The translations under genes were made by a program, and so were the position numbers. From positions 1 through 60,366 of the IMG/VR virus record IMGVR_UViG_3300036846_000361: DNA of 60,366 nucleotides; one strand, 5' to 3'. The DNA is from a virus. Its lineage: Duplodnaviria; Caudoviricetes. Of the stretch, positions 9,404-36,464 are shown piece after piece; within the stretch, counting starts at the first letter, position 1, and each line of letters begins with the position of its first letter. A model generated the notes under the pieces. That model was not told where the DNA came from. It saw only the letters and a list, made by a program, of their open reading frames with translations, and did no database searches.

Positions 9404-9597
9404 TACAGGGGCGCCACTGGTCGCTTGATAACGACTACAGGCCCCGTGGAGTAGTAGTAGCCATGCACCGGATCAAAGAAGAACTCACGGATCGGCGGCG
9501 GCTGACCATAGCCAAGATCAATAGGCTCGTACTCTGGGGGTCTCCAAGTCGTGCCTTCGACGGCTTGGTCAACAAGGCGAGCGGGATCCGAGGACAC
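9403..9597 (-). CDS. Hypothetical protein
   Basis: 64 aa, stop coupled to TerS start. Confidence 0.5.
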   Translation of the reverse strand: MSSDPARLVDQAVEGTTWRPPEYEPIDLGYGQPPPIREFFFDPVHGYYYSTGPVVVIKRPVAPL

Positions 9598-9709
9598 GGC
9601 GAGACCCTATCGCAGCCGCGCGGCGGGCGCTAGACTGGTGTATCCGGCTCGCGTACGTCGGGCGGGCGCTCGCGTCCGCGCGTACCGGCGCGCGTTATAT
9701 AACAGCGTC

Positions 9710-10237
9710 CTACAGCTTGGTACGATCGAGGAGCTTAGCCGCGTAGAGGTACATATGAGAGAACGCGCTACGTTCGTGCTGCCTGCCTCGCACCCAGCAA
9801 TCGACAGGCTTCAGCATCTCCTGAGTCTTGTAGCGCGCGGCGGCGGCAGGCTCTTGCCACTGGACCTCGCTGAAGTGCTTGTGGCGTCTGTACGTGTCGT
9901 TGCGGCCAGAGCGGTAACCCTCAAAGGCCCACGCCACACGCTCGGGCGCGGTCGTGTCCTTGCCCGGAGTGGCGTTGGGCACGAGCCGGAAGTCCTCCAT
10001 GACCAGATGCACATGGTCGGCCGAGAGCAGGCTGACCGTGACGCACTGAGTCTTGAACCCGAGCCAGTAGCTCCAGATCAGGCGAGCCTGCTGCATGGGG
10101 TCGCCGGTGATGGTGGCCGAGCCCTTGTGCAGGATCAGGCGCATGCAGTCGGCGGCGAGTCGCTGTGTCGGGTCGATCACGCCCCAGGCAATCCCGGTGG
10201 ACTGCCCAGGGTCGATCGCGAACACACCAATGTTCAT
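9710..10237 (-). CDS. RuvC-like Holliday junction resolvase
   Basis: N-terminal AIDPGQSTGIA, LVMEDF, C-terminal HERSAFSH: RNase H-fold pattern. Confidence 0.75.
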   Translation of the reverse strand: MNIGVFAIDPGQSTGIAWGVIDPTQRLAADCMRLILHKGSATITGDPMQQARLIWSYWLGFKTQCVTVSLLSADHVHLVMEDFRLVPNATPGKDTTAPERVAWAFEGYRSGRNDTYRRHKHFSEVQWQEPAAAARYKTQEMLKPVDCWVRGRQHERSAFSHMYLYAAKLLDRTKL

Positions 10238-14438: not shown

Positions 14439-15082
14439 CGAGGTCTCCTCCGGAGACCTCGAAGTTGAATCCGAATCTTGAAAACTGACTTGTAGGGAGA
14501 GCGAAAGGGGAATCCCCTTCGCTCATGTTCCCGATTCCGGTAGGCAACTCTCGGAGATGAATCCCGGCGCGTAGGTAAGCGCCGCGCGTAGCGTCCGAGC
14601 CGAGCCGACTACCTCCCGCGACGGAGCGAAAGATGACTAGCGCGGCGGGAGGGACGAGACCGACCCGCTACTCAAGTAGCGTTGAAACGCCGGAATGTGA
14701 GGGCCTCAATCCACCGAGGAAGTAACGCCTATGAGTTGGGGTTCGAGAACCGAACCTTGAAAATGAGATCCCAAGTCCGGACGTAGCGCGCTCGACGACA
14801 TCGCAGCCGCGTACCCCGGAAGTTGACGCGGTTAGCCATACCGCACCAAGGGTAGGCTCGAAACTTGAGACTAGAGCCAAGAGAGAGGACAACTTCCGAC
14901 GGATCAAGAAACGCGCAAGCGTATATTGACCGCGCTACGGGCGGGCTTGAGGGGAAATGGTACCCCCCTCCTTACGGCCGAGCGGAGGGCAAAGGAAAGA
15001 CAATTCGAGCCTTTGCCCTCCGTTCATTAAGTACGGGCCAAGTCAGAAAAAGAGCCCGCATTTAATGAACGGATCCCCGTTC
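14439..15082 (+). ncRNA. Large structured non-coding RNA or structured early leader, unassigned family
   Basis: No convincing ORF; more than 10 hairpins plus long-range pairings 14485-14492/15039-15046, 14782-14790/14931-14939, 14817-14825/14890-14898. Confidence 0.65.
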
Positions 15083-15095
15083 AAAAGGAGGGAAA

Positions 15096-15401
15096 ATGGA
15101 CAAAGCGACCCAACGCCTACGGGCGCAGATCAAGTCCGAGCGTACAAAGAGAGGTCAACTCTCCCCGATTCATCCGAAATGGCTCGGGAAGAAAAACGGA
15201 CCATCTCAGAGAGTAACTCCGACAATCTGCGGCCATATCGAAGGCGGCGAGCAAATCCCGATCAAGCGTAAGCGAAAATCGGACAACTCGTACTATACGG
15301 TGATGATTATCGTTGGCGGAACGAGATGTACGAAACCAAGCGATATTCGGCATCCGCGCTACGGTCACCGTTGCCTCGATCATTCCGGGTGCGCCATCTA
15401 G
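15096..15401 (+). CDS. Basic hypothetical protein with C-terminal Cys/His cluster
   Basis: RBS AAAAGGAGGG; first ORF of the early region. Confidence 0.55.
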   Translation: MDKATQRLRAQIKSERTKRGQLSPIHPKWLGKKNGPSQRVTPTICGHIEGGEQIPIKRKRKSDNSYYTVMIIVGGTRCTKPSDIRHPRYGHRCLDHSGCAI

Positions 15402-15460
15402 CGATGGCCATCCCGGAGTGTCATCGACGACATTCCAATACCAACAAGGAGGGTACCGAA

Positions 15461-15610
15461 ATGGCAACTATCGCTGTCATCAAAACGACAAGCGGAAGTT
15501 ACAACGTCTTTGGAACGGAAGACGAGATGTTCGTCATCCAAGGCAACCTGACCTTCGAGCAACTGAAGAAGCTCAAGGTCGAGGTTGACAAGGCGGTGAA
15601 AGCTCGATGA
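15461..15610 (+). CDS. Early hypothetical protein
   Basis: ATG directly after motif 15448. Confidence 0.7.
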   Translation: MATIAVIKTTSGSYNVFGTEDEMFVIQGNLTFEQLKKLKVEVDKAVKAR

Positions 15611-15876
15611 AAACGGTAACGGTCCATTGTGACGCCGTTGACATCGAGGCGTTGATCGGCGCGGCTGATCTGCCGCTCGATCGGCTTCCCGATGTTCTCA
15701 TCGTGACCAATGATGAGAAGTGGGGCGACATCTTCTGGATCATGCCGGACATTCTCATGTTTGCCGGTGTTCCGGATGACCCTGAGTTGATCACGTTTCA
15801 GCGCGCGGTCGGAAGCGACATCGCAGAAGACGTGATCAACCGCGTTCGACGGATGTTCTGGGCAATTCAGCCGTGA
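15607..15876 (+). CDS. Early hypothetical protein
   Basis: ATGA-coupled. Confidence 0.65.
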   Translation: MKTVTVHCDAVDIEALIGAADLPLDRLPDVLIVTNDEKWGDIFWIMPDILMFAGVPDDPELITFQRAVGSDIAEDVINRVRRMFWAIQP

Positions 15877-15947
15877 TTGCGGGTGCCCGTCGAAAGACGG
15901 CATCCCGGAGTCATCGAACGATGCTCCAGTCCAAAAGGAGGGTACCA

Positions 15948-16208
15948 ATGAAGGTCAAGGCGATTTACCATCAGACCGAACCCGATGGAAAGCTTGTTCA
16001 TGTTGTCGATCATGACAACGGCGGCTTTGTGGTCTCATCGGAGAAGGTCGGCATCGCCGTTCAGAACTTCTTGAACGAAGCGACGAGTCTCGATATGCGT
16101 ACACTTCATACGCATCTGCTCTACGCCTTCAAGGATCGCTTCCAAGAAGAAGCAGACGCAGGCAACCATCCCACCCTGGACAATTGGCGAATCGACGAAC
16201 GGTCATGA
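15948..16208 (+). CDS. Early hypothetical protein
   Basis: ATG after motif 15937. Confidence 0.7.
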   Translation: MKVKAIYHQTEPDGKLVHVVDHDNGGFVVSSEKVGIAVQNFLNEATSLDMRTLHTHLLYAFKDRFQEEADAGNHPTLDNWRIDERS

Positions 16209-16285
16209 CACTCTACATCGTCACGACGTTCGCCATCGTCGCTTGGGGCGCTTTTGTCGCGTCGCTCTTGAGGTGGCTCGGATGA
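16205..16285 (+). CDS. 26-aa membrane peptide
   Basis: MTLYIVTTFAIVAWGAFVASLLRWLG, ATGA overlaps at both ends. Confidence 0.5.
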   Translation: MTLYIVTTFAIVAWGAFVASLLRWLG

Positions 16286-16458
16286 CGCAAATCCTGAAGT
16301 TCAGGGATGAACGCTTTCAACGCTGCCCAGAATGCGGAAGACCAACCGCACTTCTGAACAACGGACGGTTGAGACGACATTTCGTCGTTGACGAGAGCGG
16401 ACGGCATCTCTGCGTCGAACGAGCAATCGACCGGAAAGCATTGCGGGTGACCGGCTGA
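16282..16458 (+). CDS. Small Zn-finger-like protein
   Basis: CPECG...RRH...C pattern. Confidence 0.55.
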   Translation: MTQILKFRDERFQRCPECGRPTALLNNGRLRRHFVVDESGRHLCVERAIDRKALRVTG

Positions 16459-16517
16459 AAAGCCGGCATCCCGGAATGTCAGCCGGCATTTCGAACAACC
16501 CTAAAGGAGGGTACCGA

Positions 16518-17312
16518 ATGATCTATCTCGATGCGGAAGGCAATGAGTGGGAGTTCCGCTACATTGTCACGCAGACCGAGGATGAAGGCCCGGAGCGGTT
16601 GGAGTTTCGGGCACATGATCCGGAGCATCTCGACGACGCCTACAACCCTTGGCGTATTTGGAGCGAGAGCCTGCCGATCCTCAACGAAGCCTACAATCAC
16701 TTCCATGGCTTCTTGATCACGGCCGACATGAACCCGGACAACATCCCGACGCTCGCCGAAGCGTTCAGCAACATCCGACTCATCGCAGAGGAGGAGGACA
16801 ACGAGACGCTCAAGCACATCGGGGACATGGACGAGCCGTTGATCGCGCTCATCCGTGGAGCCCTTGAGGGCGACCTGTCTCCGAGCAATCGGGCGTTGCT
16901 GGCCCATCTCTGCGGCAAGACGATCACACTCGACACTGAGCCCGACGAGTACGAGTACAACGTCTCGCTACACGTCAAGGAGAAGGGCCAAGAAGTGTCC
17001 GAGTACCGGATGGTGATTGATTCCTTCCGGTTGTACTCTGAAAGCCCGTTGAACTTCGCCTTCGACCTCGAAGCGAAGATCATGAACATCGTCAACATGG
17101 GCAAGTATACGCGGCATGAAGTGGTCGCGTGGATCTCAACTGCCTCCGGCGATGAGCACTGGCTCATGACCTGGGCCAATGCGTCTGACCTGATCCTGCT
17201 GGAGCAGGCGTCGGCGCGCGGTTACGACGTCACGAGTCACTTCCAGAGCATCCAGGACGCGATGTCGATCGAAGGTCACAAGTTCGTCCGAGCACGAGCC
17301 GAGCGCAACTAG
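16518..17312 (+). CDS. Acidic early hypothetical protein
   Basis: ATG after motif 16506; 264 aa. Confidence 0.75.
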   Translation: MIYLDAEGNEWEFRYIVTQTEDEGPERLEFRAHDPEHLDDAYNPWRIWSESLPILNEAYNHFHGFLITADMNPDNIPTLAEAFSNIRLIAEEEDNETLKHIGDMDEPLIALIRGALEGDLSPSNRALLAHLCGKTITLDTEPDEYEYNVSLHVKEKGQEVSEYRMVIDSFRLYSESPLNFAFDLEAKIMNIVNMGKYTRHEVVAWISTASGDEHWLMTWANASDLILLEQASARGYDVTSHFQSIQDAMSIEGHKFVRARAERN

Positions 17313-17391
17313 CGCGTTCAGCGGCGGGGCAAGAAGAAAAGCTTGCCCGCGCCGGTGTCCAAAAGGCGCCATAACCAAAGGAGGGTACCGA

Positions 17392-17673
17392 ATGTCGTTT
17401 GTTCCCGATGCACAAGGAACAGCCAAGCGTCGCGAGCAGGATAAGGATATGATCCTGAATCCTGATCGTTGGCCTGTCTGGCCCAAGCTGCCGTTGAAAA
17501 GGCACGGCTATGAGCAGAATCATGGCTTCGCCTTCAACGGAAGCTTGAAAGACGACAACACACGTTCTCGCGTCTACCTGGCGACGATCTTCAGCGCCAT
17601 CGACGATGCGACGCTCTACATCGACTACCCCGACATCGATGCTCTACTCGATGACGGCTGGACGGTGGACTAG
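17392..17673 (+). CDS. Early hypothetical protein
   Basis: After motif 17380; WPVWPKLPLKR...LLDDGWTVD. Confidence 0.75.
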   Translation: MSFVPDAQGTAKRREQDKDMILNPDRWPVWPKLPLKRHGYEQNHGFAFNGSLKDDNTRSRVYLATIFSAIDDATLYIDYPDIDALLDDGWTVD

Positions 17674-17742
17674 TCAGCGGCAGGGGTTCACAGAACCCCT
17701 TGCCGGTGTCCATAAGGCCACCAGACCAAAAGGAGGGTACCA

Positions 17743-18030
17743 ATGGACTTTGTCGGACCAGGCTCCCGTAAAATCGGAGTCGGTTTGATGCGGATGTTCA
17801 AGTCCGGACACGAAGCGGCCAAGGTCTACCAGAAGACCAACGAAGGCATCAAGCTTCGCAAGTATCGCGAAGACAACGCCGACGTGGTAGCCGTCATCGA
17901 GATGGAGTCGTCACGTCCCACCGTCACCCGTACATTGATCGGCGCAGCAGTTGCAGGCCCGGTCGGTGCGATCGTTGGTCTCTCAGCACAGAAGAAGGAG
18001 ACCAAAACCGGGAAGGTGAGGGCAAGATGA
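17743..18030 (+). CDS. Early hypothetical protein with glycine-zipper segment
   Basis: After motif 17732; IGAAVAGPVGAIVG. Confidence 0.7.
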   Translation: MDFVGPGSRKIGVGLMRMFKSGHEAAKVYQKTNEGIKLRKYREDNADVVAVIEMESSRPTVTRTLIGAAVAGPVGAIVGLSAQKKETKTGKVRAR

Positions 18031-18302
18031 ACGAGATCATCCGCGCAGACGGCGGCGAGATGAACCCGACCACCGCCAAGGTGGTCGAGATCAGATTCGT
18101 CATCGACGGATCGTTCAAGACCGCCAACCTGATCGATGAAGTCTGTGACAACCTCGATTGGGTGTTCGCAGCCGTCGAACTGAACCCGGATGGATTCGGG
18201 CACACGGTTCCGGACATGAACGTCATGCGCACCGCTGCCTGGATGGACAGCGACGTCATGGCGGAGGTCGAGGAATCGCTGAAAAGCGGTGAGCCAAGGT
18301 GA
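18027..18302 (+). CDS. Early hypothetical protein
   Basis: ATGA-coupled. Confidence 0.6.
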   Translation: MNEIIRADGGEMNPTTAKVVEIRFVIDGSFKTANLIDEVCDNLDWVFAAVELNPDGFGHTVPDMNVMRTAAWMDSDVMAEVEESLKSGEPR

Positions 18303-18502
18303 AAGCTGAGCCTGGCAAGGTCGTACTCGTCTCCAGCATTCCGGGTTGCAACTTCTGCAATGACGGAACGCCAGGGCCGTACGACTTCAAGACGAGGATG
18401 GGCCCGTGGGCGAACGGTTGCGAGATGCACTATCGTCACCTTCGTGCTACCCCAGACCTCGGCGTCGGTATGGCTCAACTCTGGATCACAGAGGAGTCAT
18501 GA
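18299..18502 (+). CDS. Small Cys-containing hypothetical protein
   Basis: CNFC...YDFKT..GPWANGC..H. Confidence 0.65.
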   Translation: MKAEPGKVVLVSSIPGCNFCNDGTPGPYDFKTRMGPWANGCEMHYRHLRATPDLGVGMAQLWITEES

Positions 18503-18720
18503 TGGGAGCACACAGCCTAGCTGAAGCTCCGACACGGACGGTTCATGTCGTCCAGGTCTTGTCGAACGGCCGCATGATCTCTTTATGTGGCCGGGAAGCT
18601 GACGAGAGTTGGAAGCGCATCGCGCAGCACGACCAGGCGATCTTCGGCAAGGGACCGAGGTCAATCAGGGAAATGTTACCTGATCTGCGTCTCTGCGCTC
18701 TGTGTCTACCTCGATCATGA
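18499..18720 (+). CDS. Small Zn-binding hypothetical protein
   Basis: H...SLCG...CALC; RBS GAGGAG. Confidence 0.55.
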   Translation: MMGAHSLAEAPTRTVHVVQVLSNGRMISLCGREADESWKRIAQHDQAIFGKGPRSIREMLPDLRLCALCLPRS

Positions 18721-18875
18721 ACGGCATCGACATCCTCGTGATCGTGATCGTGCTCGCGATCGTGTTCGTCGGAGCGAATATGCTCGACAAGCACGAGACT
18801 GAGCTCGACGATGATGACGACATCGAGGATGAAGTAGCGAAAGCTCGCAAGCGCAAGCGTAACGGCGCAAGCTAG
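18717..18875 (+). CDS. 52-aa membrane protein (absent from ORF track)
   Basis: N-terminal TM, then acidic and basic tail; ATGA-coupled. Confidence 0.6.
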   Translation: MNGIDILVIVIVLAIVFVGANMLDKHETELDDDDDIEDEVAKARKRKRNGAS

Positions 18876-18943
18876 ACGGCACCCCGCGCAAGCGGGGCAC
18901 CGTGTGGCGTTCGCCACAGTACGAAACCAAAAGGAGGGTACCA

Positions 18944-19252
18944 ATGAAGAAGCTCCATCGCGAGAAGCTCGCAGATCTTGGCATCTCATCGAACAAGTAC
19001 GTCGTGCTCGAAGACGGGACGGTCATCTATGACAAGAACGACCGGCCCAACGGCGTACTGATTCCGATCATCTGGGGCATCACGCTCGAACACGATCGCT
19101 GGATGATGTATGTCGAGTACCAGACCGACGAGTTCGGTGGTCGTCCGCGTCATTACCTGCGCTGGTCGCAGGGTGAGAAGAACGACTTGTCGAGGCCATT
19201 CCTCCGGCAGCAGGATGCGATCGCTGCCGCGATCAGTTCGGTGTACGCATGA
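18944..19252 (+). CDS. Early hypothetical protein
   Basis: After motif 18933. Confidence 0.7.
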   Translation: MKKLHREKLADLGISSNKYVVLEDGTVIYDKNDRPNGVLIPIIWGITLEHDRWMMYVEYQTDEFGGRPRHYLRWSQGEKNDLSRPFLRQQDAIAAAISSVYA

Positions 19253-19512
19253 AGCCGAAAGAAGGTGACAAGGTCAAGGTCATCGACAGGCTCTCATCGC
19301 TCGGCGACGAAAGTGCTCCTGAGATCTGGATCGTCATCCAAGCTCACGACAATCTGGACGAATCCTGGGATCCGTTCGGTGAGTCCGCTTGGGCTCAAAA
19401 GGATCACGATACCGAAACCGGGCAAACCGGCGAATGGTACGTGATCTGCAAGACCGGCGAATGGATGGACGGCACGTGTAGCTTCGCCAGCTACGAGGTC
19501 GAGTCGCTATGA
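19249..19512 (+). CDS. Early hypothetical protein
   Basis: ATGA-coupled. Confidence 0.6.
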   Translation: MKPKEGDKVKVIDRLSSLGDESAPEIWIVIQAHDNLDESWDPFGESAWAQKDHDTETGQTGEWYVICKTGEWMDGTCSFASYEVESL

Positions 19513-19637
19513 AGCGAGGCAAGTATCTGCAGATCGGCTCGGGCAGCAGATCCCGCTCGATCGCCAAAGCAGAAGACAAGGCTCGCCGCTCTCGCAAGAA
19601 AGCAGACAAGAAGCAAGCACTCAAGGATCAATCCTGA
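19509..19637 (+). CDS. 42-aa basic peptide
   Basis: ATGA-coupled, K/R rich. Confidence 0.5.
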   Translation: MKRGKYLQIGSGSRSRSIAKAEDKARRSRKKADKKQALKDQS

Positions 19638-19714
19638 GCACTGCGCCTGCCCTCGGCAACGAGGGTTTGGCGGAGACCTCATGAGAGGCTCCAAACCAAA
19701 AGGAGGGTACCGAT

Positions 19715-19930
19715 TTGACGCGAAAGAAGCCGGCATACACACCGCCAAGGCTTCACGACCAATGCTTCATCGCGAAGACGTATGGCCCATGGTCGTCAGG
19801 GACTCGGGTCGAGATCATCAAGCTCGATATGCCTGCTGACTACGTGGTCGTGCGTCATACCTCGACAGGTGAGGAGTTCGAGATTGAACTCGATGTCCTC
19901 GTCAGGAAGCGAGACCGCAATCGTGACTGA
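19715..19930 (+). CDS. Early hypothetical protein (TTG start)
   Basis: After motif 19702. Confidence 0.65.
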   Translation: MTRKKPAYTPPRLHDQCFIAKTYGPWSSGTRVEIIKLDMPADYVVVRHTSTGEEFEIELDVLVRKRDRNRD

Positions 19931-20180
19931 ACTCACCGACGGCACCCGCATCCGCATCACGCAGAAGACCAAGCTATGGTATCCGAGCGTGGAGGCGAAT
20001 GTGGAGGTCGAACCTGGTCGCGAGTTCATCGCGATCGACAGGCCCGACGAGAACAATTACGGTTGGTGCCTGCCGGTGGTCGAGCCGGATGTGTACGCCA
20101 GCGATGTCGTCGAGATACACGACGACAGCATGATCGTAGTCTGCGATCCCGATTCGTTCGTGATTGTCGAGGAGAAATGA
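19923..20180 (+). CDS. Early hypothetical protein
   Basis: GTG start overlapping upstream gene end. Confidence 0.55.
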   Translation: MTELTDGTRIRITQKTKLWYPSVEANVEVEPGREFIAIDRPDENNYGWCLPVVEPDVYASDVVEIHDDSMIVVCDPDSFVIVEEK

Positions 20181-20383
20181 TCATCGACACGCCGGATGGG
20201 ATCGAAGCATACCGCATGCTCGCGATCTACCATCGGCTAAAGCTTGAGATGAAAGGAATCCGGTTCCGCATCTCGACCTTCGCCGTTGCGCGTCGCGAGT
20301 TGGGTATGAGCCCACGTACTCCCAGGGCCAAGGTTCTGGAAGCGTGGGAAGCGAAGATGAAGGAGAAGGGAATCAATGTCTAA
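20177..20383 (+). CDS. Early hypothetical protein
   Basis: RBS GAGGAG, ATGA-coupled. Confidence 0.65.
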   Translation: MIIDTPDGIEAYRMLAIYHRLKLEMKGIRFRISTFAVARRELGMSPRTPRAKVLEAWEAKMKEKGINV

Positions 20384-20564
20384 GCTGACAGTCACGTACG
20401 AGGCTGAGAGCATGGAAGACCTGGCTCAAGGTCTCGAAGCTCGGGCTGAGGAGTTGGAGCAGCAGGTCGGAAGCTCCAACCAGAGAAAAGGTCACCTGCT
20501 CAAGGCTGAGGCAGACGGCTACCGTGCCGCAGCTGAGATCGTCCGCAGAACGACGATCGGCTGA
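20376..20564 (+). CDS. Early hypothetical protein
   Basis: 62 aa, RBS GAAGGGA. Confidence 0.6.
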   Translation: MSKLTVTYEAESMEDLAQGLEARAEELEQQVGSSNQRKGHLLKAEADGYRAAAEIVRRTTIG

Positions 20565-20636
20565 CGATCCGGTGGGGTTGGGAAACCAACCCCTTCCGAA
20601 TCGCCAACTGGCGAGGAAACCAAAAGGAGGGTACCA

Positions 20637-21614
20637 ATGACAAGTGGAAAGCGGGACGATCTGTTCCGCAAGATCCAGGGACTCCTCGCAAAAGCCGAGG
20701 CAACCGAGCACGAAGGTGAACGTCAGGTGTTCATGGCGAAGGCCGATGAACTCATGATGAAGTACCGCATCGAGCTTTGGGAACTTCAGCAGCACGAGGC
20801 CGGTCGAATCTCCGAGCGCGAGCCGGTGGTCAAGGACTTTGACTACAGCTTCGCGTTTGAGTCGGGTCCATTCCCGGAGATCAGCGATGCGCTTTGGTCG
20901 CTGTTCTGCTCGACCGCAAGGCACGTCGGCTGCATCATCGTCTTCCACAAGCAGCACTGGAGCGGTGAGAAGAAGCAGTACATGTCGGCTGTCGTCCCGG
21001 TGATCGGCACCGAGAGCGACCAGGGTTACTTGACGCTGCTGTTCTCGTCACTCATGACGCAGCTGGTAGAGCAGATCCGGCCCAAGTACGATCCGGGCAA
21101 GGACTACTACCAGAACCTGCGCATGTTCAAGGAAGCGGGCTGGAACTGGCTGGAGACAGCCAAGGCCATGCAGGATGCCGGCTTCCATACCGACGTGACG
21201 AACGACAAGGCTCGTCACCTGACCGCTCACGCGTACCGCCGCTGGTGCAAGAAGATGGGCATCGACCAGAACTACTCCAACTGGAAGACGTACCGCCGCA
21301 ACTTCGCGGATGGCTTCGTCCACCGGGTGGCCGCTCGCTTCGTCGAGATGGCCGATGCTCAGAAGAAGGTCAAGAGCGACAGTGGCACCGGCTTCGATCT
21401 GGTCCTGCGCGAGCAGCATCAGATCAACCTGGACTTCCTGAATCAGATGTTCCCTGTGACGGGCACCGGCAGAGCCGTGACCGTCGCTCGCGATTCCCGC
21501 AAGTTCGACTCGTCTGCCTATGGCAGTGGTCGCGCAGCGGGCGATCGAGCGAACATCAGCGGCAACCCTGGCCGGGGAGTTCGGCCAGGTGGAGGTCGGC
21601 AACTGAAAAGTTGA
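20637..21614 (+). CDS. DUF2786-domain protein
   Basis: N-terminal KIQGLLAKAE...FMAKADELMMKYRI and C-terminal AY.SGRAAG.RA pattern. Confidence 0.8.
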   Translation: MTSGKRDDLFRKIQGLLAKAEATEHEGERQVFMAKADELMMKYRIELWELQQHEAGRISEREPVVKDFDYSFAFESGPFPEISDALWSLFCSTARHVGCIIVFHKQHWSGEKKQYMSAVVPVIGTESDQGYLTLLFSSLMTQLVEQIRPKYDPGKDYYQNLRMFKEAGWNWLETAKAMQDAGFHTDVTNDKARHLTAHAYRRWCKKMGIDQNYSNWKTYRRNFADGFVHRVAARFVEMADAQKKVKSDSGTGFDLVLREQHQINLDFLNQMFPVTGTGRAVTVARDSRKFDSSAYGSGRAAGDRANISGNPGRGVRPGGGRQLKS

Positions 21615-21697
21615 CGATCCGGTAGGAGCCTCATTGCGGCGGGGCTCCGTCCGAATCGCCAATAGTTGGCGGTTGAACAAACCCAAAGGAGGGTACC

Positions 21698-22306
21698 ATG
21701 GAACGGACACCGATCCCGCAGGAGTTGCGGGATTCCGGTCCACTCGCCTCGCCAGCGCAGGTCTCATATCTGAAGGCTCTGCGTGACGGCAAAACCCTGA
21801 GCTCACTAACTCAGGAACAAGTCGAGTGGCTCATCTCGACCGACTTCACCACGATCCCGAAGCGGCGCGCAAGCTCCGTCATCGAGACGCTGGTGGGGCT
21901 GCCTTGGAAGCCGAAGAACGAGCAAGAGGCAGCGCAGGTCGAGGCGAGAGGCGCAGGTCTGCCGGTGTCGATGAACGATCTGCCTGACGGCTACTACGCC
22001 GTCAAGGGTGTCGAAGGTCACAAGAACGACATCTCGTTCTTCCGCCTGCGCTCACCCAAGCAGGGCAACTGGGTCGGCTACCAGTTCACCGATCAGGTTG
22101 TGGGTCATGGGAAGCGGTATCCTGTCAAGGAAGCCGCCACCCGCGAGAAGATCCACGGCATGATCAAGGAACAGGGAGTCACCGAGTGCCGGCAGTTGTA
22201 CGGCCAGGAAATCGGTAGTTGCGGCCGTTGCGGTCGCGAACTCACCGACGACACCAGCCGCGCTCGGGGCATCGGCCCCGACTGCTGGGCGATCATGGGA
22301 GGTTGA
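21698..22306 (+). CDS. DUF6011-type Zn-finger protein
   Basis: C-terminal CGRCGRELTDDTSRARGIGPDC. Confidence 0.8.
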   Translation: MERTPIPQELRDSGPLASPAQVSYLKALRDGKTLSSLTQEQVEWLISTDFTTIPKRRASSVIETLVGLPWKPKNEQEAAQVEARGAGLPVSMNDLPDGYYAVKGVEGHKNDISFFRLRSPKQGNWVGYQFTDQVVGHGKRYPVKEAATREKIHGMIKEQGVTECRQLYGQEIGSCGRCGRELTDDTSRARGIGPDCWAIMGG

Positions 22307-22307
22307 C

Positions 22308-22583
22308 ATGGTTCTGCAGAAGGTCGATGGCGTTCAGATCTATGACGACAAGAACAAGCGGGTGTTTCTGAACACCCGAGTCGTCTCGTCAACGAACGTC
22401 GAGTGGGTCGGTTGGCCCGAGTCGGGTGAACCGATCATGTTCGTGCGGTACAGTTCCGGCAAGCTCTATGGATACCTCGGCGTCAGCCGCCAGCGCGCGG
22501 TCGCCGCTGCGTACTCATCGAGCGTCGGCGGCTACATCGCCCAGCGCGTCAAGCCGAAGTTCCAAGTTGTACAGATCAGCTAG
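22308..22583 (+). CDS. KTSC-domain protein
   Basis: VSSTNVEWVGW...VRYSSGKLYGYLGV...SSVGGY fits the KTSC pattern. Confidence 0.65.
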   Translation: MVLQKVDGVQIYDDKNKRVFLNTRVVSSTNVEWVGWPESGEPIMFVRYSSGKLYGYLGVSRQRAVAAAYSSSVGGYIAQRVKPKFQVVQIS

Positions 22584-22647
22584 TTGCGGCGGACCAATCG
22601 AGAGATTGGCCGCCCGGAGCTAACTGCTCCAGAAAGGAGGGTACCAA

Positions 22648-23238
22648 TTGGACATCGAGAAGGAATGGCGGCGTGATCCGCCGATCGAGCCAATGACTTC
22701 GATGCCGGCACTTTGGCACGACTTCAAACGGCGTCGAGCGGATCCGCAGTCTCCCATCCATCGGTTCAGGGACAACATCCCTGACGCCTGCGCTCTGGAC
22801 GGGTCGGCACATGCAGCTTTGCGCCGAGCCGTCCGCAGTATCAGGCCGAACGGAAAGATGCACAATCATCAGTCGAAAGTCTCACCGGCTCTGCCGCAGT
22901 ACGAGGCGACGCTGATTGAGCATATGAACGTGATCATTCAGATGGACACCTTCAATCGGCTGTACACGATGCTCGGTCTTCTGAAGACTCCGGGCATCGG
23001 TCCGATGACCATCTACGACGTAGCGGTGCGCTTCGGTGCCTGGCTTGGGTTGAAGCCCGAGAAAATCTATGTCCATGCTGGTACGTCGGCTGGACTGAAG
23101 GCGCTCGGCATTAAGCCTGACGGACACAGTGTCCCGATGGAGTTGCTGCCGAGGATTCTGAGACGCAAGGATCCGGATGAGGTCGAAGACTTCCTCTGTA
23201 CATACCGAGTCGCATTTGAAAGGATGAGGGATGCCTGA
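22648..23238 (+). CDS. HhH-motif protein, DNA glycosylase / amino acid:DNA transferase-like fold
   Basis: LLKTPGIGPMTIYDVAVRFG...IYVHAGT...EDFLC. Confidence 0.5.
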   Translation: MDIEKEWRRDPPIEPMTSMPALWHDFKRRRADPQSPIHRFRDNIPDACALDGSAHAALRRAVRSIRPNGKMHNHQSKVSPALPQYEATLIEHMNVIIQMDTFNRLYTMLGLLKTPGIGPMTIYDVAVRFGAWLGLKPEKIYVHAGTSAGLKALGIKPDGHSVPMELLPRILRRKDPDEVEDFLCTYRVAFERMRDA

Positions 23239-23425
23239 CTTCCGTATCACGATCGAACTGGTAGATGTCAGCGGCGATCAAACCGACGAACTGGCCAAGG
23301 AAATCGAAGATGACTATGGTCAGGACTTCGGCATCAACGACGGTGACTTCATAGTACGCATCTCGCAGAAGGTCGGCCAGAACTACTTTGGCCGCGACCC
23401 TGGCGACGACGTCATCCAGACGTAG
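23231..23425 (+). CDS. Acidic hypothetical protein
   Basis: 64 aa, RBS GAGGG. Confidence 0.6.
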   Translation: MPDFRITIELVDVSGDQTDELAKEIEDDYGQDFGINDGDFIVRISQKVGQNYFGRDPGDDVIQT

Positions 23426-23498
23426 TTGCGGGCAGGGCGGGTAGCGCCGCCCCACCCGGAATCTCGTATGGATTCCCGTTTGCCCTGGAAAATTGGGG

Positions 23499-23527
23499 TA
23501 GACGTATGGGTGAGTCTTAGGTAGGCT
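23499..23527 (+). promoter_or_regulatory. Promoter TAGACG-N17-TAGGCT
   Basis: Matches the 27865-27893 pattern; upstream of the 23570 gene. Confidence 0.5.
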
Positions 23528-23569
23528 TACTCAGGTTGGCCGTAATCTATCTCCAAGGAGGGAGCACCC

Positions 23570-24052
23570 ATGGCCAGTAGTGTGAATTTCGCCCAGCTTG
23601 TCAAGCTGGCGAAGCAGGGAATGGGCCACAGCGCGGCAGCCGCCGAGTTGGGCGTCACCGTCGGGCAGATCAGTTCGCTGGTCTTCTCGAAGGCTCTGGT
23701 CGAAGCAGGTCAGTACGACGAAGTGACCAAGGTCACTCCGGCCGTCATCGTCCGTCTCAAGGATGACGAGGGCAACCGCTGGGAACTGATCGCGGCCCGC
23801 ACCGGCAAGACGGTGGGCGAGGTCAAGGACCTGTACGTCGAGGGTGGCGGCGATCTGAACGGTGGATCGCGAACGTCATCGCCGGGAACGAACCGTGCGT
23901 CTGGTCGCAAGACCAAGTCGGCTCCGGCTGCCAAGTCGGGCGCCAAGAAGAAGACGGCAGGCCGCAAGGCCAAGGCGTCTTCGGCACGGCCGGTTGGTCG
24001 CGCTCGCACGCTCGCTGAGCGGCGTCGGTCGCGGTCGTCCAACCCCTCGTAG
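23570..24052 (+). CDS. Tandem-HTH DNA-binding protein with histone-like basic tail
   Basis: GMGHSAAAAELGVTVGQI and RWELIAARTGKTVGEVKDLY HTH-like segments; K/R/A-rich C-terminus. Confidence 0.7.
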   Translation: MASSVNFAQLVKLAKQGMGHSAAAAELGVTVGQISSLVFSKALVEAGQYDEVTKVTPAVIVRLKDDEGNRWELIAARTGKTVGEVKDLYVEGGGDLNGGSRTSSPGTNRASGRKTKSAPAAKSGAKKKTAGRKAKASSARPVGRARTLAERRRSRSSNPS

Positions 24053-24093
24053 CGGCGGCCATCGAGGCTACCAGATCCGGTGACTCGGGTGAA

Positions 24094-24354
24094 TTGGAGG
24101 AACTTCTCCACCCCGGTCGCCGGGTCTGGGTCGTTGCGAAGGCTGAAGAGAGAGACGGATGGATCATACCGGCGTCTGTTTACTCGTGTGACATCCGTAG
24201 CTTCAAGCAGTTCCTCCCGCGCGGTATTTTCAACTCTGAGCGTGGCACAGTTGAGCGAAAGCAGTCGCTCGTACAACTGTACACTGATCCCGGCGGGTAT
24301 CGCACGATTGCCGTCGCGAACATCAGGATGAAAGATCCCACGAAGGCTAGGTGA
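24094..24354 (+). CDS. Hypothetical protein
   Basis: 86 aa ORF ending just before element 24357; start uncertain. Confidence 0.45.
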   Translation: MEELLHPGRRVWVVAKAEERDGWIIPASVYSCDIRSFKQFLPRGIFNSERGTVERKQSLVQLYTDPGGYRTIAVANIRMKDPTKAR

Positions 24355-24423
24355 GACTGCGGGCGGGCTGGTAGCAGCCTTGCCCGGAGCTTCATCACGA
24401 AGTTCCATACAGAAGGGGTACCT

Positions 24424-24681
24424 ATGGACGAGTATGTTGATACACTACCCGTCTACACAGCGAAGCGAAGTGAGTCATTCCCTTCGTTTCTCGTTGTGAT
24501 GTGCGGGCGCGAGGACTGTCCAGGTACCAAGGCTGACAGGCCGTTCCTCGTGAGTCAACGCGAATGGATGCGCCCGATTCATAGAGAATCGCGGAGCGGC
24601 AAGCCATTCGTCATCACCGGAAGATCCTGCCCATATTGCTTCAGGGCGGGACGGCTTCCGAAGCGCAGCGCGATCCGGTAG
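24424..24681 (+). CDS. Zn-finger hypothetical protein
   Basis: CGREDC...CPYC; variant motif GAAGGGGTACC upstream. Confidence 0.65.
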   Translation: MDEYVDTLPVYTAKRSESFPSFLVVMCGREDCPGTKADRPFLVSQREWMRPIHRESRSGKPFVITGRSCPYCFRAGRLPKRSAIR

Positions 24682-24748
24682 GATTCCGGTAGCGCGCGCA
24701 AAAGTTCGCGACGACAAAAGGTAGCCGTTCTACCCGGCGTTGGCGCGA

Positions 24749-24810
24749 TGGAGGGGAGGGAAGTCCAGGTCGAGCGTTGGTACCCTCCACCTGGCTTCCC
24801 TCCCACTCTA
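24749..24810 (+). promoter_or_regulatory. Long hairpin whose loop carries the antisense of the early RBS motif (candidate sRNA or leader)
   Basis: About 21-bp stem; loop 24771-24788 ends in TTGGTACCCTCC. Confidence 0.6.
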
Positions 24811-24845
24811 CACAAGCTTGGCCGTATTACAACAAAGGAGGAGGT

Positions 24846-25175
24846 ATGCCAAGGAAAAGAAGGGAGGCTGCATCGACCCACGTTACCTTTGTGGGTCCTG
24901 ACAAGCCTCCCCGGAATAGCCCCGGTGTAAGTTGGGGCATCCGACTCCAACCGCTCGTTCAGAATCCTGGGCAATGGGCTGAGGTCGCGGTGTTCGACAC
25001 CCCGATGCAAGCTCAGCAGGCTCAGGCGAACCTGGTCAAGCGGGAACGAGTTGGGATCAATATTCCGATGAGTGGCGGCGAATGGGAGTTCGCAGCACGC
25101 GATTGTACCCTGTTCGCCGTCTATCGAGGAGGTCAAAAGCGCCGTGGCTCACGTAGCGTTCGCCGAGCTAGCTGA
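24846..25175 (+). CDS. Hypothetical protein
   Basis: RBS AAAGGAGGAGG; NPGQWAEVA...WEFAAR. Confidence 0.7.
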   Translation: MPRKRREAASTHVTFVGPDKPPRNSPGVSWGIRLQPLVQNPGQWAEVAVFDTPMQAQQAQANLVKRERVGINIPMSGGEWEFAARDCTLFAVYRGGQKRRGSRSVRRAS

Positions 25176-26943
25176 ACGCGGTGACCGCTGTGTTGTGATC
25201 TTCCGGTACAGCCAAGAGGCTGTCTACGCAATCAAGCGCGTTCCCGGCGCTCGGTTTGTCCCTCACGACAAGGCCGGATCCGTCGGGCAGGCTCACTGGA
25301 CTCTGCCTCTCGACCTTGACGTCATGCGTACCCTGCGCTCGGAGTTCGGTGACGGACTTCAGCTGGGGGATGCGATCAAGGCGTGGGGTCGAGGGCAGGT
25401 CCAGAAGGAGCGCAACCTAACTTCACTCGCCGTGAGCGATGATATCGCGATCGACAAGTTGAAGATAGCGAAGCTCCTGCCGGACCTGACCGAATGGTTC
25501 CGACCGTACCAGCGGGCGGACGTCAAGTTCATGGCGACGACGAACTGTCTGAACCTGAACGAGCCGCGCTTGGGCAAGACGACTGAGGTGATCGGTTCCG
25601 TCTTTGAGGCGGGACTACAGAAGATGCCTCAACTAGCGATCGTGCCCAAGTCTACGATCGACTCCATTTGGAGAATGGAGATCGAGCGGTGGACGAAGAT
25701 CCCGGTGGTAGCGTATCACGGCGATCTCAATGCCCGCGAGAAAGCGGACTGCGAGCGAGTTGTTGAACGCTGCCTCGATAAGGGCAAGCCGTTCTGGTTC
25801 GTGACGACGGCGGACATGATCCGTCGCGGATCGTACCCAGGCGTCGATCAGGTTCCGGTCTGGGGCTCGGTCACCATTGACGAGTTCCACAAGACCGGGT
25901 TGCCTGAGATCAGGAACGTGTTTCCGAAGGCGGTAGGCAAGATCGCGGCTGAACGGAAGTACGCACTCAGCGGCACCCCGATGGGCGGCAAGCCGATCAA
26001 GTTGTGGGGCGCTCTGCACTTCATCGAACCTAACCAGCATACGTCGAAGTGGACGTGGGCTGCGCAATGGCTCGTGATCAATACGGTGTGGGGCAATCAC
26101 AAGGAGATAGGCGGCATCAAGCGAGGTCGTGAAGACGACTTCTACCGGATGCTGTCCAAGCATGCCATCCGTCGGCTCCGGAGCGAGGTATTGCCCGAGC
26201 TACCGGAGAAACAGTGGGTGGATGTCTGGTGCAAGATGACTGCCGGCCAGGCGGCTCAGTACAACGAGTTCGCCAAGCAGGCAGAAATCCGCATCGACGA
26301 GTTCCACCTATCTGCTACGAGCGTGCTCGCGGAGTATGTCCGGCTCAAGCAGTTCGCCAATCATAAGAACAAGGTCGAAGTGCTGGGCATGGATAAGGAG
26401 ACGGGAAAGCTTGACTTGAAAGTCAGAGCCACCGAGGAATCAGGGAAGCTGCCAGAGCTACTCGAACGGTTGTACGAGTGCGGCATCGATCCTGAGGAGC
26501 CGGAAGGTGATGAACAAGCGATCGTGGCTTCTCAGTTCCGCGAGACCGCCGAGATGGTTCACCGCCATCTTACCTCTCAGGGTATCGGATGTGCGATCAT
26601 CAGCGGTAGGGTGCCGCAGAAGGAACGCAATCGGCTTCAGGCCGAGTTCCAGAGCGGCAAGCTCCGCGTTATGATCGTCGTCACCGCTGCTGCCGGCGTT
26701 GGCATTACGCTGAACAAGGCGGCTTCGGTCCATGTTCTCGATGAGACCTGGAACCCCGACGATCAGGAGCAGCTGACCGATCGCGCAGTCGATACGAATG
26801 AGTACCATCAGGTCACGGTGTTCGTGTACCGGAGCCGTGGCACTGTGGAGCAGTACATTAAGGAAGTGAACGACGAGAAGTGGGACGTGAACAAGGACAT
26901 CCTCGATCTGCGGAGGCAAGGCTTCCGCGCCATGAAAGGGTAA
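25144..26943 (+). CDS. SNF2-family helicase
   Basis: EPRLGKT, TIDEFH, LSGTP, ESGK, GVGITL, WNP..EQ..DR motifs. Confidence 0.9.
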   Translation: MAHVAFAELAERGDRCVVIFRYSQEAVYAIKRVPGARFVPHDKAGSVGQAHWTLPLDLDVMRTLRSEFGDGLQLGDAIKAWGRGQVQKERNLTSLAVSDDIAIDKLKIAKLLPDLTEWFRPYQRADVKFMATTNCLNLNEPRLGKTTEVIGSVFEAGLQKMPQLAIVPKSTIDSIWRMEIERWTKIPVVAYHGDLNAREKADCERVVERCLDKGKPFWFVTTADMIRRGSYPGVDQVPVWGSVTIDEFHKTGLPEIRNVFPKAVGKIAAERKYALSGTPMGGKPIKLWGALHFIEPNQHTSKWTWAAQWLVINTVWGNHKEIGGIKRGREDDFYRMLSKHAIRRLRSEVLPELPEKQWVDVWCKMTAGQAAQYNEFAKQAEIRIDEFHLSATSVLAEYVRLKQFANHKNKVEVLGMDKETGKLDLKVRATEESGKLPELLERLYECGIDPEEPEGDEQAIVASQFRETAEMVHRHLTSQGIGCAIISGRVPQKERNRLQAEFQSGKLRVMIVVTAAAGVGITLNKAASVHVLDETWNPDDQEQLTDRAVDTNEYHQVTVFVYRSRGTVEQYIKEVNDEKWDVNKDILDLRRQGFRAMKG

Positions 26944-26945
26944 AG

Positions 26946-27200
26946 ATGATTCACTTCATCGTGCTCTTGGTGGCTTTTGGTTGGGCGATTATGACCGCGA
27001 TTCCCAAGGCTGCGGAGCTTCGTAGCCAAGGGGAGCGGAAGAACGGCCCAGCTAAGGCTCGCCAGGGCGGGAAACAGGCTCCTACAAGCTCTCCGAGGGT
27101 GCGTAGGACGGTCTCCGCGCCGCGCGTCCTGTCGAGCGCGGACTACAAGGAGATGGACGAGTGGTTTTCGGAAGGTAGCAAGCCCGAAGACTACAAGTGA
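26946..27200 (+). CDS. Membrane-anchored hypothetical protein
   Basis: N-terminal hydrophobic helix, RBS AAAGGG. Confidence 0.55.
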   Translation: MIHFIVLLVAFGWAIMTAIPKAAELRSQGERKNGPAKARQGGKQAPTSSPRVRRTVSAPRVLSSADYKEMDEWFSEGSKPEDYK

Positions 27201-27279
27201 GCGGGTAGCGGGTGAGGCCGACAATTGAGCGGCCCACCCCGGTGCTCGTGTCGAGTACCAGAACCGAAAGGAGGGTACC

Positions 27280-27423
27280 ATACTCAAAAAGCTGTCACAG
27301 AGTAGGACGGCCAGATGGGAACGTGCTGCTACCTCTCTGCGCGAGGCAGCCGACAAGGTGGAAGCTCTATTCTCTGAGTTGGATGAACCGCTCAACGAGT
27401 TGCGTGACCTGCAGGCGGAGTAA
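27280..27423 (+). pseudogene. ATA-initiated or decayed helical ORF after motif 27270
   Basis: ILKKLSQSRTARWERAATSLREAADKVEALFSELDEPLNELRDLQAE*; ATA sits where ATG sits at 21698. Confidence 0.45.
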
Positions 27424-27453
27424 ATCAATGACGCTTGGAAGGAGGTAATCGGT

Positions 27454-27672
27454 ATGGCATCCCTTGCCAAGCCGAGGCCAGACGGCTCCGTCCATTTTGT
27501 CTCGCAGTCAGTAGACAACGGGAAGTGGACGACGCTGTGTGGCAAGCAGGTGAAGGCGAGTACGTGGGTGTTCACACACGCGTACGACGATCGGATTGTT
27601 GAACTGAAGCAATCCGGTCGTGCCCGGAGCGAATTGCGCTCTCTGGGCTACGTCTGTCACCGCTGTTTCTGA
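27454..27672 (+). CDS. Small Zn-binding protein
   Basis: H...TLCG...CHRC; RBS AAGGAGG. Confidence 0.65.
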   Translation: MASLAKPRPDGSVHFVSQSVDNGKWTTLCGKQVKASTWVFTHAYDDRIVELKQSGRARSELRSLGYVCHRCF

Positions 27673-35833: not shown

Positions 35834-36464
35834 TAAGATCATGCCGGTCGTCGCTATCGACATCGATGGGACGCTCGGAGACTATCACACTCACTTCCTG
35901 AGCTTCACCGAGGACTGGCTTGGATACGACGCGCATCCGGATATGCCGACGTACGACGGATCAGAGTCCTTCAGCGCCTGGTGCGAGGATGCCTTCGCTA
36001 TCTCGATCGACACCTTCCGGCAGATCAAGCTTGCCTACCGGCAGGGCGGTATGAAACGAACCATGCCGATCCTCGATGGCGCCCAGAAGCTCTGCTGGGA
36101 TATACAGGATGCCGGCGCGGAGCTATGGATGACTACGACACGACCGTACCTCTCACTCGACAACATCGTGCCGGATACGGTCGAGTGGCTCCGTCGCTAC
36201 CACATCGAGTACGACGGCATGTTGTTTGATGAGGACAAGTATGCCCAGCTAGCCGGTCGCATCAATCCGGAGAGAGTTGTCCTCGTCCTCGATGATCTGA
36301 GCGAGATGTGTGAGGCCGCGAACGTCCTATTCCCCGGTCGGGTAATGCAGGTTGCCAACCACTACAACGCGGGAGCCCTGTACAGCGTCTCGACCGATCT
36401 CAAGTCTGCGCATGAGATCGCGCTGGATAGGATCGCCGCCTGGAGGGAGCAGAATGACGAATAA
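35811..36464 (+). CDS. HAD-superfamily nucleotidase/phosphatase
   Basis: AIDIDGTL motif I, TTRP, VLDD. Confidence 0.8.
   Translation: MFCSRCGDKIMPVVAIDIDGTLGDYHTHFLSFTEDWLGYDAHPDMPTYDGSESFSAWCEDAFAISIDTFRQIKLAYRQGGMKRTMPILDGAQKLCWDIQDAGAELWMTTTRPYLSLDNIVPDTVEWLRRYHIEYDGMLFDEDKYAQLAGRINPERVVLVLDDLSEMCEAANVLFPGRVMQVANHYNAGALYSVSTDLKSAHEIALDRIAAWREQNDE

Follow-up and report, generated by a model that had tools for sequence, protein, structure and literature searches.

The feature closest to the one reported here is the start-associated sequence (SAS) of cluster K mycobacteriophages, a motif found next to gene starts in 11–19 copies per genome, with a single reversed copy in K1 phages (PMC3203893). 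Its partner, the extended SAS (ESAS), is described in the same paper as a conserved 17-bp imperfect inverted repeat whose departures fail to maintain pairing, and more recent work suggests that it contains promoters (PMC11373665); two papers from 2024 and 2025 still call the function of the SAS unknown (PMC11373665 and PMC12699233). Tags shared by the ribosome sites of early genes date back to 2011, and neither a reader nor a purpose has been assigned to them. Here we describe a tag of this kind in IMG/VR virus record IMGVR_UViG_3300036846_000361, together with the twin-hairpin RNA elements that carry it along the early operon and an anti-tag hairpin whose loop changes with the tag and is a candidate reader. 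The record, which we call the window (the whole stretch of 60,366 bp), is complete, with direct terminal repeats and a completeness rating of 100%.

Several other systems share parts of this arrangement. The early genes of T7 and the early RNA of SP82 carry intercistronic RNase III sites, which divide a polycistronic message into stable units and in the T7 type span about two turns of double-stranded RNA, and the put elements of HK022 are two-hairpin antitermination RNAs. A type II hammerhead consists of two abutting hairpins and is cut between them, so that one hairpin is left on the upstream 3' end and one on the downstream 5' end. The c4 antisense RNA of P1 and P7 is processed by RNase P, and RNAIII of Staphylococcus is a C-rich-loop regulatory RNA of Gram-positive bacteria. 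The 6C RNA of Mycobacterium is a further C-rich-loop regulatory RNA (PMC6486639), c4 has two target sites that guard one gene, ant (PMC12197685), and RegB and RegA of T4 act on early messages (review, PMC3014915). In the literature consulted, of which the cluster K supplements (possibly detailing the reverse site) were not part and other papers were seen in part, we found no description of a tag with its anti-tag or of such a hairpin pair.

Tagged twin-hairpin elements of the early operon

The 12-mer AAGGAGGGTACC, hereafter the tag, occurs in 11 exact copies in the window, all on the + strand between 15446 and 27279 (starting at 15446, 15935, 16504, 17378, 17730, 18931, 19700, 20624, 21686, 22634, and 27268). 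At <=2 mismatches there are 15 matches, compared with a mean of 2.84 and a maximum of 8 in shuffled sequence, and 0 of 100 shuffles reach 15. Each exact copy lies 0–4 nt before an ATG, a TTG or (once) an ATA, and is preceded by a hairpin of 8–14 bp (H1), a second hairpin of 4–9 bp located 0–2 nt away (H2), and an A/C-rich linker. Like a feature of the SAS type, the tag is confined to non-structural genes; all copies lie within 15.4–27.3 kb. An earlier note on this DNA had described thirteen twin-hairpin elements with an extended ribosome-binding site (RBS), and these are borne out: eleven have exact + strand tags, one has a variant, and one is tag-less.

Relatives were obtained by a helicase search of IMG/VR, which gave 40 loci, and by a profile search, which gave 35 more (designated by L numbers). 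Nine loci with helicases 64–83% identical to that of the window have the same architecture and contain the same 12-mer 1–11 times within the stretch analysed (none in the short L056). The window's tag is also found in L108, and the same architecture occurs with other tags, namely GGAGGGTCA (L063, L065, and L066), GGAGGGTACA (L082, L084, and L086), and CAGGGAGG (L104 and L106). Our parser, which allows a junction of up to 2 nt, was applied to 124 tag-bearing sites from 15 sources and resolved 110 of them, 107 distinct, into two hairpins. In these 107 copies H1 has a mean energy of -17.9 kcal/mol (-7.7 in shuffles), and the 5' arm of H2 pairs with its own partner at -9.0 kcal/mol, as opposed to -3.1 with the partners of other elements (105/107). 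H1 and H2 abut directly in 77 copies and are separated by 1 nt in 20 and by 2 nt in 10, and the linker is composed of 45% A, 28% C, 17% G, and 10% T. One sub-family has fixed flanks within which the inner stems are perfect hairpins of unrelated sequence (21/21). Closure of H1 by CG...CG, which the earlier note took to be invariable, is true of one sub-family only, and the GNRA-type loops it called frequent make up 15 of the 38 tetraloops among the 107 loops. Sequence conservation at the junction and in the loops is almost nil across sub-families.

MAFFT alignments of the 13 elements yielded no RNAalifold structure, so we relied on our own parsing and on a model-based alignment. A covariance model seeded with three copies from another lineage yielded 104 matches (E <= 1; 14 sources), all but one of them on the + strand. 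In the resulting alignment both sides have changed in 17/17 pairs, and pairing is kept in 96.1% of cells, compared with 60.7% in shuffles. The covariation score is 0.779 versus 0.202 (0/500 shuffles reach it); as the alignment was fitted to the model, the control with slid partners (0.06–0.08) is the fairer comparison. The building of this model and the search of relatives uphold the earlier statement that stems differ and pairing is kept. The foreign-seed model R2 alone detects 6/13 window elements at E < 0.05. The iterated model R3, trained on 104 rows that include 6 window copies, was run without filters on both strands of the whole window; it recovers 12/13 elements at E <= 0.0035 and nothing comparable outside 14.98–27.28 kb. 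The elements are real, clade-wide, and under selection as RNA; covariation, a strict strand bias, and the lack of T-tract terminators on the + strand support this RNA-level reading.

The features of the early operon are listed below, with E values from model R3.

14949-14971, + strand: leader hairpin with an imperfect anti-tag, GGTACC, two extra C, then CCTCC; a minus-strand tag match with 2 mismatches
14977-15094, + strand: 14th element-like unit, tag-less, before the first early gene; two hairpins, AAAAGGAGGGAAA, ATG 15096; E 0.02
15375-15457, + strand: element 1; H1 15387-15413 (stop TAG 15399 in the loop), H2 15415-15436, linker, tag 15446-15457, ATG 15461; E 0.0022
15874-15946, + strand: element 2; stop TGA 15874, H1 15881-15905, H2 15907-15927, tag 15935-15946, ATG 15948; E 8.8e-5
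16435-16515, + strand: element 3; H1 16445-16471 (stop TGA 16456 in the 5' arm), H2 16472-16493, tag 16504-16515, ATG 16518; E 5.8e-4
17310-17389, + strand: element 4; stop TAG 17310, H1 17323-17353, H2 17354-17370, tag 17378-17389, ATG 17392; E 3.2e-9
17671-17741, + strand: element 5; stop TAG 17671, H1 17679-17704, H2 17705-17722, tag 17730-17741, ATG 17743; E 8.4e-11
18873-18942, + strand: element 6; stop TAG 18873, H1 18876-18903, H2 18904-18917, tag 18931-18942, ATG 18944; E 1.2e-4
19635-19711, + strand: element 7; stop TGA 19635, H1 19645-19671, H2 19672-19692, tag 19700-19711, TTG 19715; E 4e-8
20562-20635, + strand: element 8; stop TGA 20562, H1 20570-20598, H2 20601-20614, tag 20624-20635, ATG 20637; E 1.5e-4
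21612-21697, + strand: element 9; stop TGA 21612, H1 21620-21653, H2 21654-21674, tag 21686-21697, ATG 21698; E 0.0035
22581-22645, + strand: element 10; stop TAG 22581, H1 22588-22614, H2 22616-22630, tag 22634-22645, TTG 22648; E 8.5e-6
23423-23476, + strand: element 11, tag-less; stop TAG 23423, H1, H2, about 90 nt to GGAGGGAGC and ATG 23570; weak in the model, E 0.29
24350-24422, + strand: element 12, with variant tag GAAGGGGTACC (24412-24422), ATG 24424; E 7.9e-7
24749-24810, + strand: anti-tag hairpin; stem of about 21 bp, apical loop 24771-24789
27198-27279, + strand: element 13; stop TGA 27198, H1 27210-27239, H2 27241-27259, tag 27268-27279, then ATA; E 2.5e-9

Of the thirteen elements in the earlier note, R3 recovers twelve at E <= 0.0035, and the tag-less unit at 14977-15094, which has no TACC, adds a fourteenth, element-like one. 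This unit belongs to the early-operon leader, where 200 very structured nt (14900-15100; fold z -6.0) also hold the hairpin at 14949-14971. The start codon that the earlier note placed after each tag is an ATG or TTG for ten of the exact copies, and the copy at 27268 is followed directly by ATA and by 47 open codons (27280-27423) with a helical-looking product. This frame has a 44%-identical match in L054 and may be a gene with a non-standard start.

No T-tract follows the hairpins, and the 10 terminator-like sites found between 13.7 and 28.0 kb all lie on the other strand (0/10 on the + strand). The linkers are A/C-rich, and we therefore rejected the intrinsic terminator class, which the earlier note had named as the alternative that would refute it. 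Sigma-70-like sites number 2 in 14.3 kb, compared with a shuffle mean of 4.1, and none is located at an element or around the anti-tag hairpin (other promoter types lay outside the scan). As no element has a sigma-70-like site, the comparison with the T4-type promoter early stem-loop (PeSL) boundary made in the earlier note was also dropped.

The stop codon of the upstream gene is closely tied to H1. It ends 0–8 nt before H1 in 73/107 copies, and in two window elements (15399 and 16456) it is within H1. The 12 nt preceding H1, the stop-codon flank, are complementary to the 5' arm of H2; when H1 is lengthened by this flank, the gain is -9.9 kcal/mol, versus -4.9 with swapped flanks (99/107 copies, 11/11 in the window). 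Because of this pairing, each element can be two hairpins or one long helix; in most copies the long form is a helix of 20–26 bp with bulges plus a free tail, similar in energy to the twin form. The 5' flanks of H1 in the clade are often TGAGTAGC or TGATCAGC, which hold stop codons in two frames and form a universal stop for any upstream cassette.

In a distant relative, L119 (helicase 37% identical), the same slot is filled by nine type II hammerheads (RF02276, 39.5–49.7 bits, threshold 37). They are located at 3497-9984 on one strand, upstream of the helicase gene, and each ends a few bases before that genome's own tag, AAGGAGCGAA. Mainly because these hammerheads fill the equivalent position, we infer that the hairpin pairs are cut-and-stability boundaries, which in the window would be served by a protein nuclease. 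By this analogy, the mRNA processing suggested in the earlier note receives indirect support. The window itself has 0 Rfam matches at gathering score, and 0 at E <= 1 in 14800-27600. A further locus, L130, contains CTGATGAGA motifs in the same slot, with no Rfam match at gathering score.

A hairpin loop complementary to the tag

The window contains one copy of the tag in the opposite sense. GGTACCCTCC (24779-24788), the reverse complement of GGAGGGTACC, is found inside the apical loop of the hairpin at 24749-24810, which occupies a 164-nt gap (24682-24845) with no credible gene. The window and the loci of the nine close relatives each contain exactly one such reverse complement on the same strand (exact in 10/10), and it always precedes the helicase gene by a few hundred bases; whole records have tags and reverse copies in the numbers 11+1, 15+1, 11+1, and 13+1. 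In all ten, a long hairpin carries the anti-tag in its apical loop of 14–20 nt, immediately next to the 3' arm. The stems vary in sequence between genomes and keep their pairing: among 12 distinct copies, 8/11 pairs are changed on both sides, and the covariation score in the alignment based on model R1 is 0.391 versus 0.180 (0/500 shuffles), and lower when partners are slid. Homology of the downstream gene's protein begins after the hairpin, which is accordingly read as non-coding. No promoter-like or terminator-like sites flank it on the + strand.

The anti-tag changes with the tag in other lineages. The GGAGGGTACA lineage carries TGTACCCTCC in 3/3 loci (two distinct), L063, with tag GGAGGGTCA, has TGACCCTCC in an H1 loop, and a long hairpin of L104 and L106, whose tag is CAGGGAGG, bears CCTCCCTG at its apex. 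Predicted duplexes between the window loop and 74 start regions separate the tagged genes from the remainder: the 11 tagged regions score -24.6 to -30.1 kcal/mol, the DNA polymerase -23.2, the variant tag -20.1, and the rest -19.8 or weaker. The complementarity between loop and tag extends over 10–13 nt, and pairing often continues 2–3 bases toward the start codon. The feature has the make-up of an antisense RNA, a stable hairpin with a loop complementary to a ribosome-binding region, and provides a concrete candidate reader for the translation control proposed in the earlier note. The gene that follows the anti-tag in the window has a different ribosome site, AAAGGAGGAGGT, with cis pairing of only about 5 bp.

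Just after the anti-tag hairpin, at L054:9650-9700 and in the same place in L055–L061, is a tRNA-like mini-helix composed of a 7-bp acceptor-like stem and a T-arm-like hairpin with a GGTTCGAnTCC-type loop region, which receives no ARAGORN call and could be an RNase P handle. The window and L053 are without it.

Genome setting and cassette turnover

The structural genes of the window are encoded on the minus strand (43.1–60.3 kb and 0–14 kb) and include those for the major head protein, protease, portal, large terminase, sheath, tube, tape measure, baseplate, and a CHAP endolysin. The + strand region of about 15.0–43.0 kb begins with about 25 small genes, mostly without matches, followed by an SNF2-type helicase (25144-26943), a PD-(D/E)XK exonuclease, and a Sak4-like protein; further + strand genes encode a primase-helicase, a DNA polymerase, an HU-like protein, and a thymidylate synthase. 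A gene at 35811-36464 is a 'polynucleotide kinase' according to PHROGs and was considered as an end-healing kinase hinting at the cleavage chemistry, but was dropped since Pfam gives only a weak, sub-threshold nucleotidase match. ARAGORN finds no tRNA in the window or in 12 relatives.

A blastn search of 50,697 GenBank phage records detects no DNA similarity beyond one 87-nt match. This match (window 22198-22285, inside a DUF6011 gene, 75.9–84.2% identity) is to hypothetical genes in 18 Mycobacterium/Mycolicibacterium phage records (cluster B-type phages). No helicase relatives are found among 185,579 species genomes, and the endolysin matches only CHAP domains from Clostridia and Verrucomicrobiia metagenome-assembled genomes at 26–33% identity.

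The early genes turn over between tag copies. A stretch of 948 nt in the window (21698-22645), with two genes and one element, is absent from L053, and the tag copies that flank it both align to the single L053 tag. Many blastn blocks shared with relatives start within 7 nt of a tag. A protein-level table of the conserved core genes (starting at 20637, 21698, 22308, 23570, 24424, and 24846, plus the helicase) shows that their order varies among relatives, and many genes located among them are present in few or no relatives. Elements 8 and 9, which flank the gene at 20637-21614, belong to the same sub-family. The comparison of gene swaps among relatives that the earlier note had in view does reveal gain, loss, and reordering of cassettes between tag copies. 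Its suggestion that the elements are recombination points fits the 948-nt cassette and the reordering, but homology starting at a gene start is expected anyway and does not prove the mechanism. L065 and L066 are on one contig of 129,757 bp with two near-identical early regions about 65 kb apart, which looks like a head-to-tail dimer of a genome of about 65 kb.

Later genes do not all have ordinary RBSs, which the earlier note had ascribed to the structural genes: nine genes, from the replication module and some late genes on both strands, share a second ribosome-site motif, GGAGGGAGC(A), which may be a second class tag. It is found at 23557, 29139, 29831, 35024, 36442, and 40710 on the + strand and at 56523 and 12817 on the minus strand; a copy at 3864 (+) is the complement of the motif on the minus-strand late transcript. 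Another motif, TGGCCGT(A/C)A, lies 10–20 nt upstream of ribosome sites without a hairpin pair (23533-23545 and 24818-24830) and, in relatives, about 15 nt in front of the gene that precedes the helicase gene.

Readings of the system and comparison with known systems

We lean, by a modest measure, toward a combined reading in which the elements punctuate the early transcript and carry a class tag read by a phage-encoded antisense loop. The elements would be intercistronic RNA modules of one long + strand early transcript (about 15.0–27.3 kb). With the upstream stop codon in or just before a stable H1, and with H2 abutting it, the pair would mark a boundary for cutting or for stability. RNase III or a similar nuclease might act on the long form, after which H1 would protect the upstream end and H2 would head the downstream message, the same end topology that a type II hammerhead gives in the distant relative. 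The A/C-rich linker would keep the 12-mer, a strong Shine-Dalgarno sequence (SD) plus the spacer GTACC, single-stranded, and GTACC would serve as an address for one phage hairpin and not for the ribosome. Pairing of loop and tag in the cell could simultaneously mask the ribosome site of every tagged cassette and might attract a double-strand RNase. As the anti-tag lies about 9.7 kb into the operon, its action would be delayed, and it may be a shut-off or tuner of the early class. A bolder version, which we regard as tentative and would not yet back, is an RNA-only private translational regulon in which the late-made anti-tag, in relatives perhaps released beside the tRNA-like mini-helix, times early shut-off, hairpin pairs or hammerheads cut the operon, and the SAS of cluster K phages is explained as well.

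Several observations weigh against this combined reading. The L065/L066 record has 20 tags without a reverse copy, and even at 1 mismatch its loci offer no convincing candidate; the L119 record (75% complete) has 8 tags and 0 reverse copies; the L108 record has 15 tags and only a 9-of-10 reverse copy, though in a hairpin loop. In the other 27 loci, model R1 detected no further anti-tag hairpin. The match in L104/L106 is a short one of 8 nt, with about 0.2–0.3 chance matches expected per locus strand by our own arithmetic. If both come from one transcript, there would be one anti-tag for 11 tags. A tagged gene immediately follows the element whose H1 loop is the anti-tag in the GGAGGGTACA lineage and L063, where the action could be in cis only, and in the cluster K phage Ekdilam the loop differs although the SAS tag is unchanged. 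The hairpin pair has no conserved core suggesting self-cleavage and no Rfam matches. A DNA-binding protein would produce the same lineage-wise change of both orientations, and for this phage both the punctuation and the anti-tag function are deduced from sequence.

The alternative that deserves most attention, although we think it unlikely, is that the module is a portable, optimised translation start: the hairpins would insulate and stabilise, the 12-mer would be kept by recombination or gene conversion, and the anti-tag would mask, in cis, the ribosome site of the helicase-block gene only. The A/C-rich linker with its local hairpins fits this idea, as do the gain and loss of cassettes between tag copies, the tag-bearing records without an anti-tag, and the position of the anti-tag in L086, L084, and L063 as the H1 loop of the element before a tagged gene. 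It does not sit well with a tag that is unchanged across relatives whose helicases are only 64–69% identical and whose surrounding stems have turned over, nor with the window, where cis pairing to the AAAGGAGGAGGT site is slight, nor with an anti-tag that is exact in 10/10 loci. If the 12-mer were instead a DNA site for a phage DNA-binding protein, like the stoperators of cluster A mycobacteriophages (PMC3203893), it would have many copies in one orientation and a single one reversed, and the hairpins would be incidental or DNA-level recombination sites. Such a protein's change of specificity predicts that both orientations shift together by lineage, and the sites do lie in short intergenic spaces in one orientation. 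Yet every forward site is an SD 0–4 nt from a start, the reversed copy is without exception in the loop at the tip of a covarying stem, a setting that a duplex-DNA site would not require, and the flanking hairpins covary as RNA on the transcribed strand only (103/104 matches); we consider this explanation improbable.

We assign still lower probability to readings in which the hairpin pairs act on transcription, as factor-dependent terminators, pause sites, or put-like antitermination RNAs. Two abutting nascent-RNA hairpins repeated along an operon would suit such roles, but there is no T-tract, the 13–14 copies per genome tied to a stop and a start fit translation units better than sites near a promoter, and the slot in L119 is filled by hammerheads and not by terminators. 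Just as improbable is a translational coupling switch in which a ribosome at the upstream stop would free the 5' arm of H2 through the alternative pairing and change the masking of the ribosome site. The stop codon is within the alternative-pairing flank, and the minimum-energy folds of elements 1 and 10 have the 3' arm of H2 paired with the GGAG of the tag. However, in a thermodynamic model of 84 elements, the unpaired probability of GGAGG is 0.47 when free and 0.45 with the stop region blocked (it rose in 41/84, p 0.62), and a switch by ribosome-site masking was rejected on this unchanged predicted accessibility. Least probable of all is that the hairpin pair is an undescribed self-cleaving ribozyme replacing the hammerhead: slot and two-abutting-hairpin topology are as in L119, but almost no junction or loop nucleotides are conserved and no Rfam family matches at E <= 1.

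New here are the alternative pairing between H2 and the flank, the lack of a T-tract, the L119 hammerheads in the slot, the cassette turnover between tags, and the anti-tag hairpin. Among related phages, one slot between cistrons can be filled by hairpin pairs or by self-cleaving hammerheads, which points to 'cut and tag' as a general design for early operons. If the combined reading is correct, it would be a compact RNA-only switch-off of a whole gene class, would offer portable parts for gene-expression engineering (insulating hairpins, a standard start region, and a matching antisense loop), and would provide a rule for locating early genes and their regulators in uncultured phage genomes.

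Among known systems, the SAS shares with the window tag a 12–13 nt asymmetric motif in which an SD core is joined to conserved bases that the ribosome does not explain, as well as a position few nt from the start, a single orientation, and a restriction to non-structural genes. It differs in sequence: the tag does not match the GGGATAGGAGCCC consensus at <=2 mismatches, and there is no DNA similarity between the phages. A likeness to the ESAS does not hold, as the ESAS is a conserved inverted repeat with changes that fail to maintain pairing (PMC3203893), whereas the partner of the window tag is a covarying hairpin pair with compensatory change in 17/17 pairs. In the cluster K phage Anaya (L093:34850-34905, record 59849-59904), the single reversed SAS, with 1 mismatch, lies in a hairpin loop within a 385-nt non-coding gap near the right end; the region is kept in 138 Mycobacterium phage records, several of which annotate a hypothetical protein over it. 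With a suggestive arrangement in Anaya and no covariation support in Ekdilam, we treat the cluster K parallel as a lead and not as a result.

The hairpin pairs resemble the type II hammerheads of L119 in that two abutting hairpins, repeated along the early operon, separate the upstream gene from a tagged ribosome site. A hammerhead core is absent from the window, where any cleavage would depend on a protein nuclease. T7 and SP82 likewise have structured intercistronic sites, for RNase III, to which the long form with its bulged helix of 20–26 bp may be compared, although this form competes with the twin form at similar energy; those of T7 are single hairpins with an internal loop and no shared ribosome-site tag. 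The class of HK022 put and lambda nut, with one or two promoter-proximal RNA sites per operon, does not fit the window, which has 13–14 copies that are each tied to a stop and a start. Class-wide inactivation of early messages through a signal overlapping the SD plus bases 3' of it recalls RegB and RegA of T4. The T4 readers are proteins, of which no homologues are found among the early proteins, and the candidate reader here is an RNA loop.

The nearest parallels for such a loop are regulatory RNAs. Like c4, the anti-tag is a phage-encoded structured RNA with a loop complementary to the ribosome-binding region of targets from the same transcription unit, but here one loop matches at least 11 ribosome sites of a whole gene class. 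Processing may also differ, in that the mini-helix of L054–L061 could invite RNase P, while the window and L053 lack it. With 6C and RNAIII, the anti-tag shares a stable hairpin that offers a C-rich loop to the G-rich SD regions of several messages. Their loops match generic sites of about 4–6 nt, whereas here the loop matches a private extension of 10–13 nt, which would give it its class specificity.

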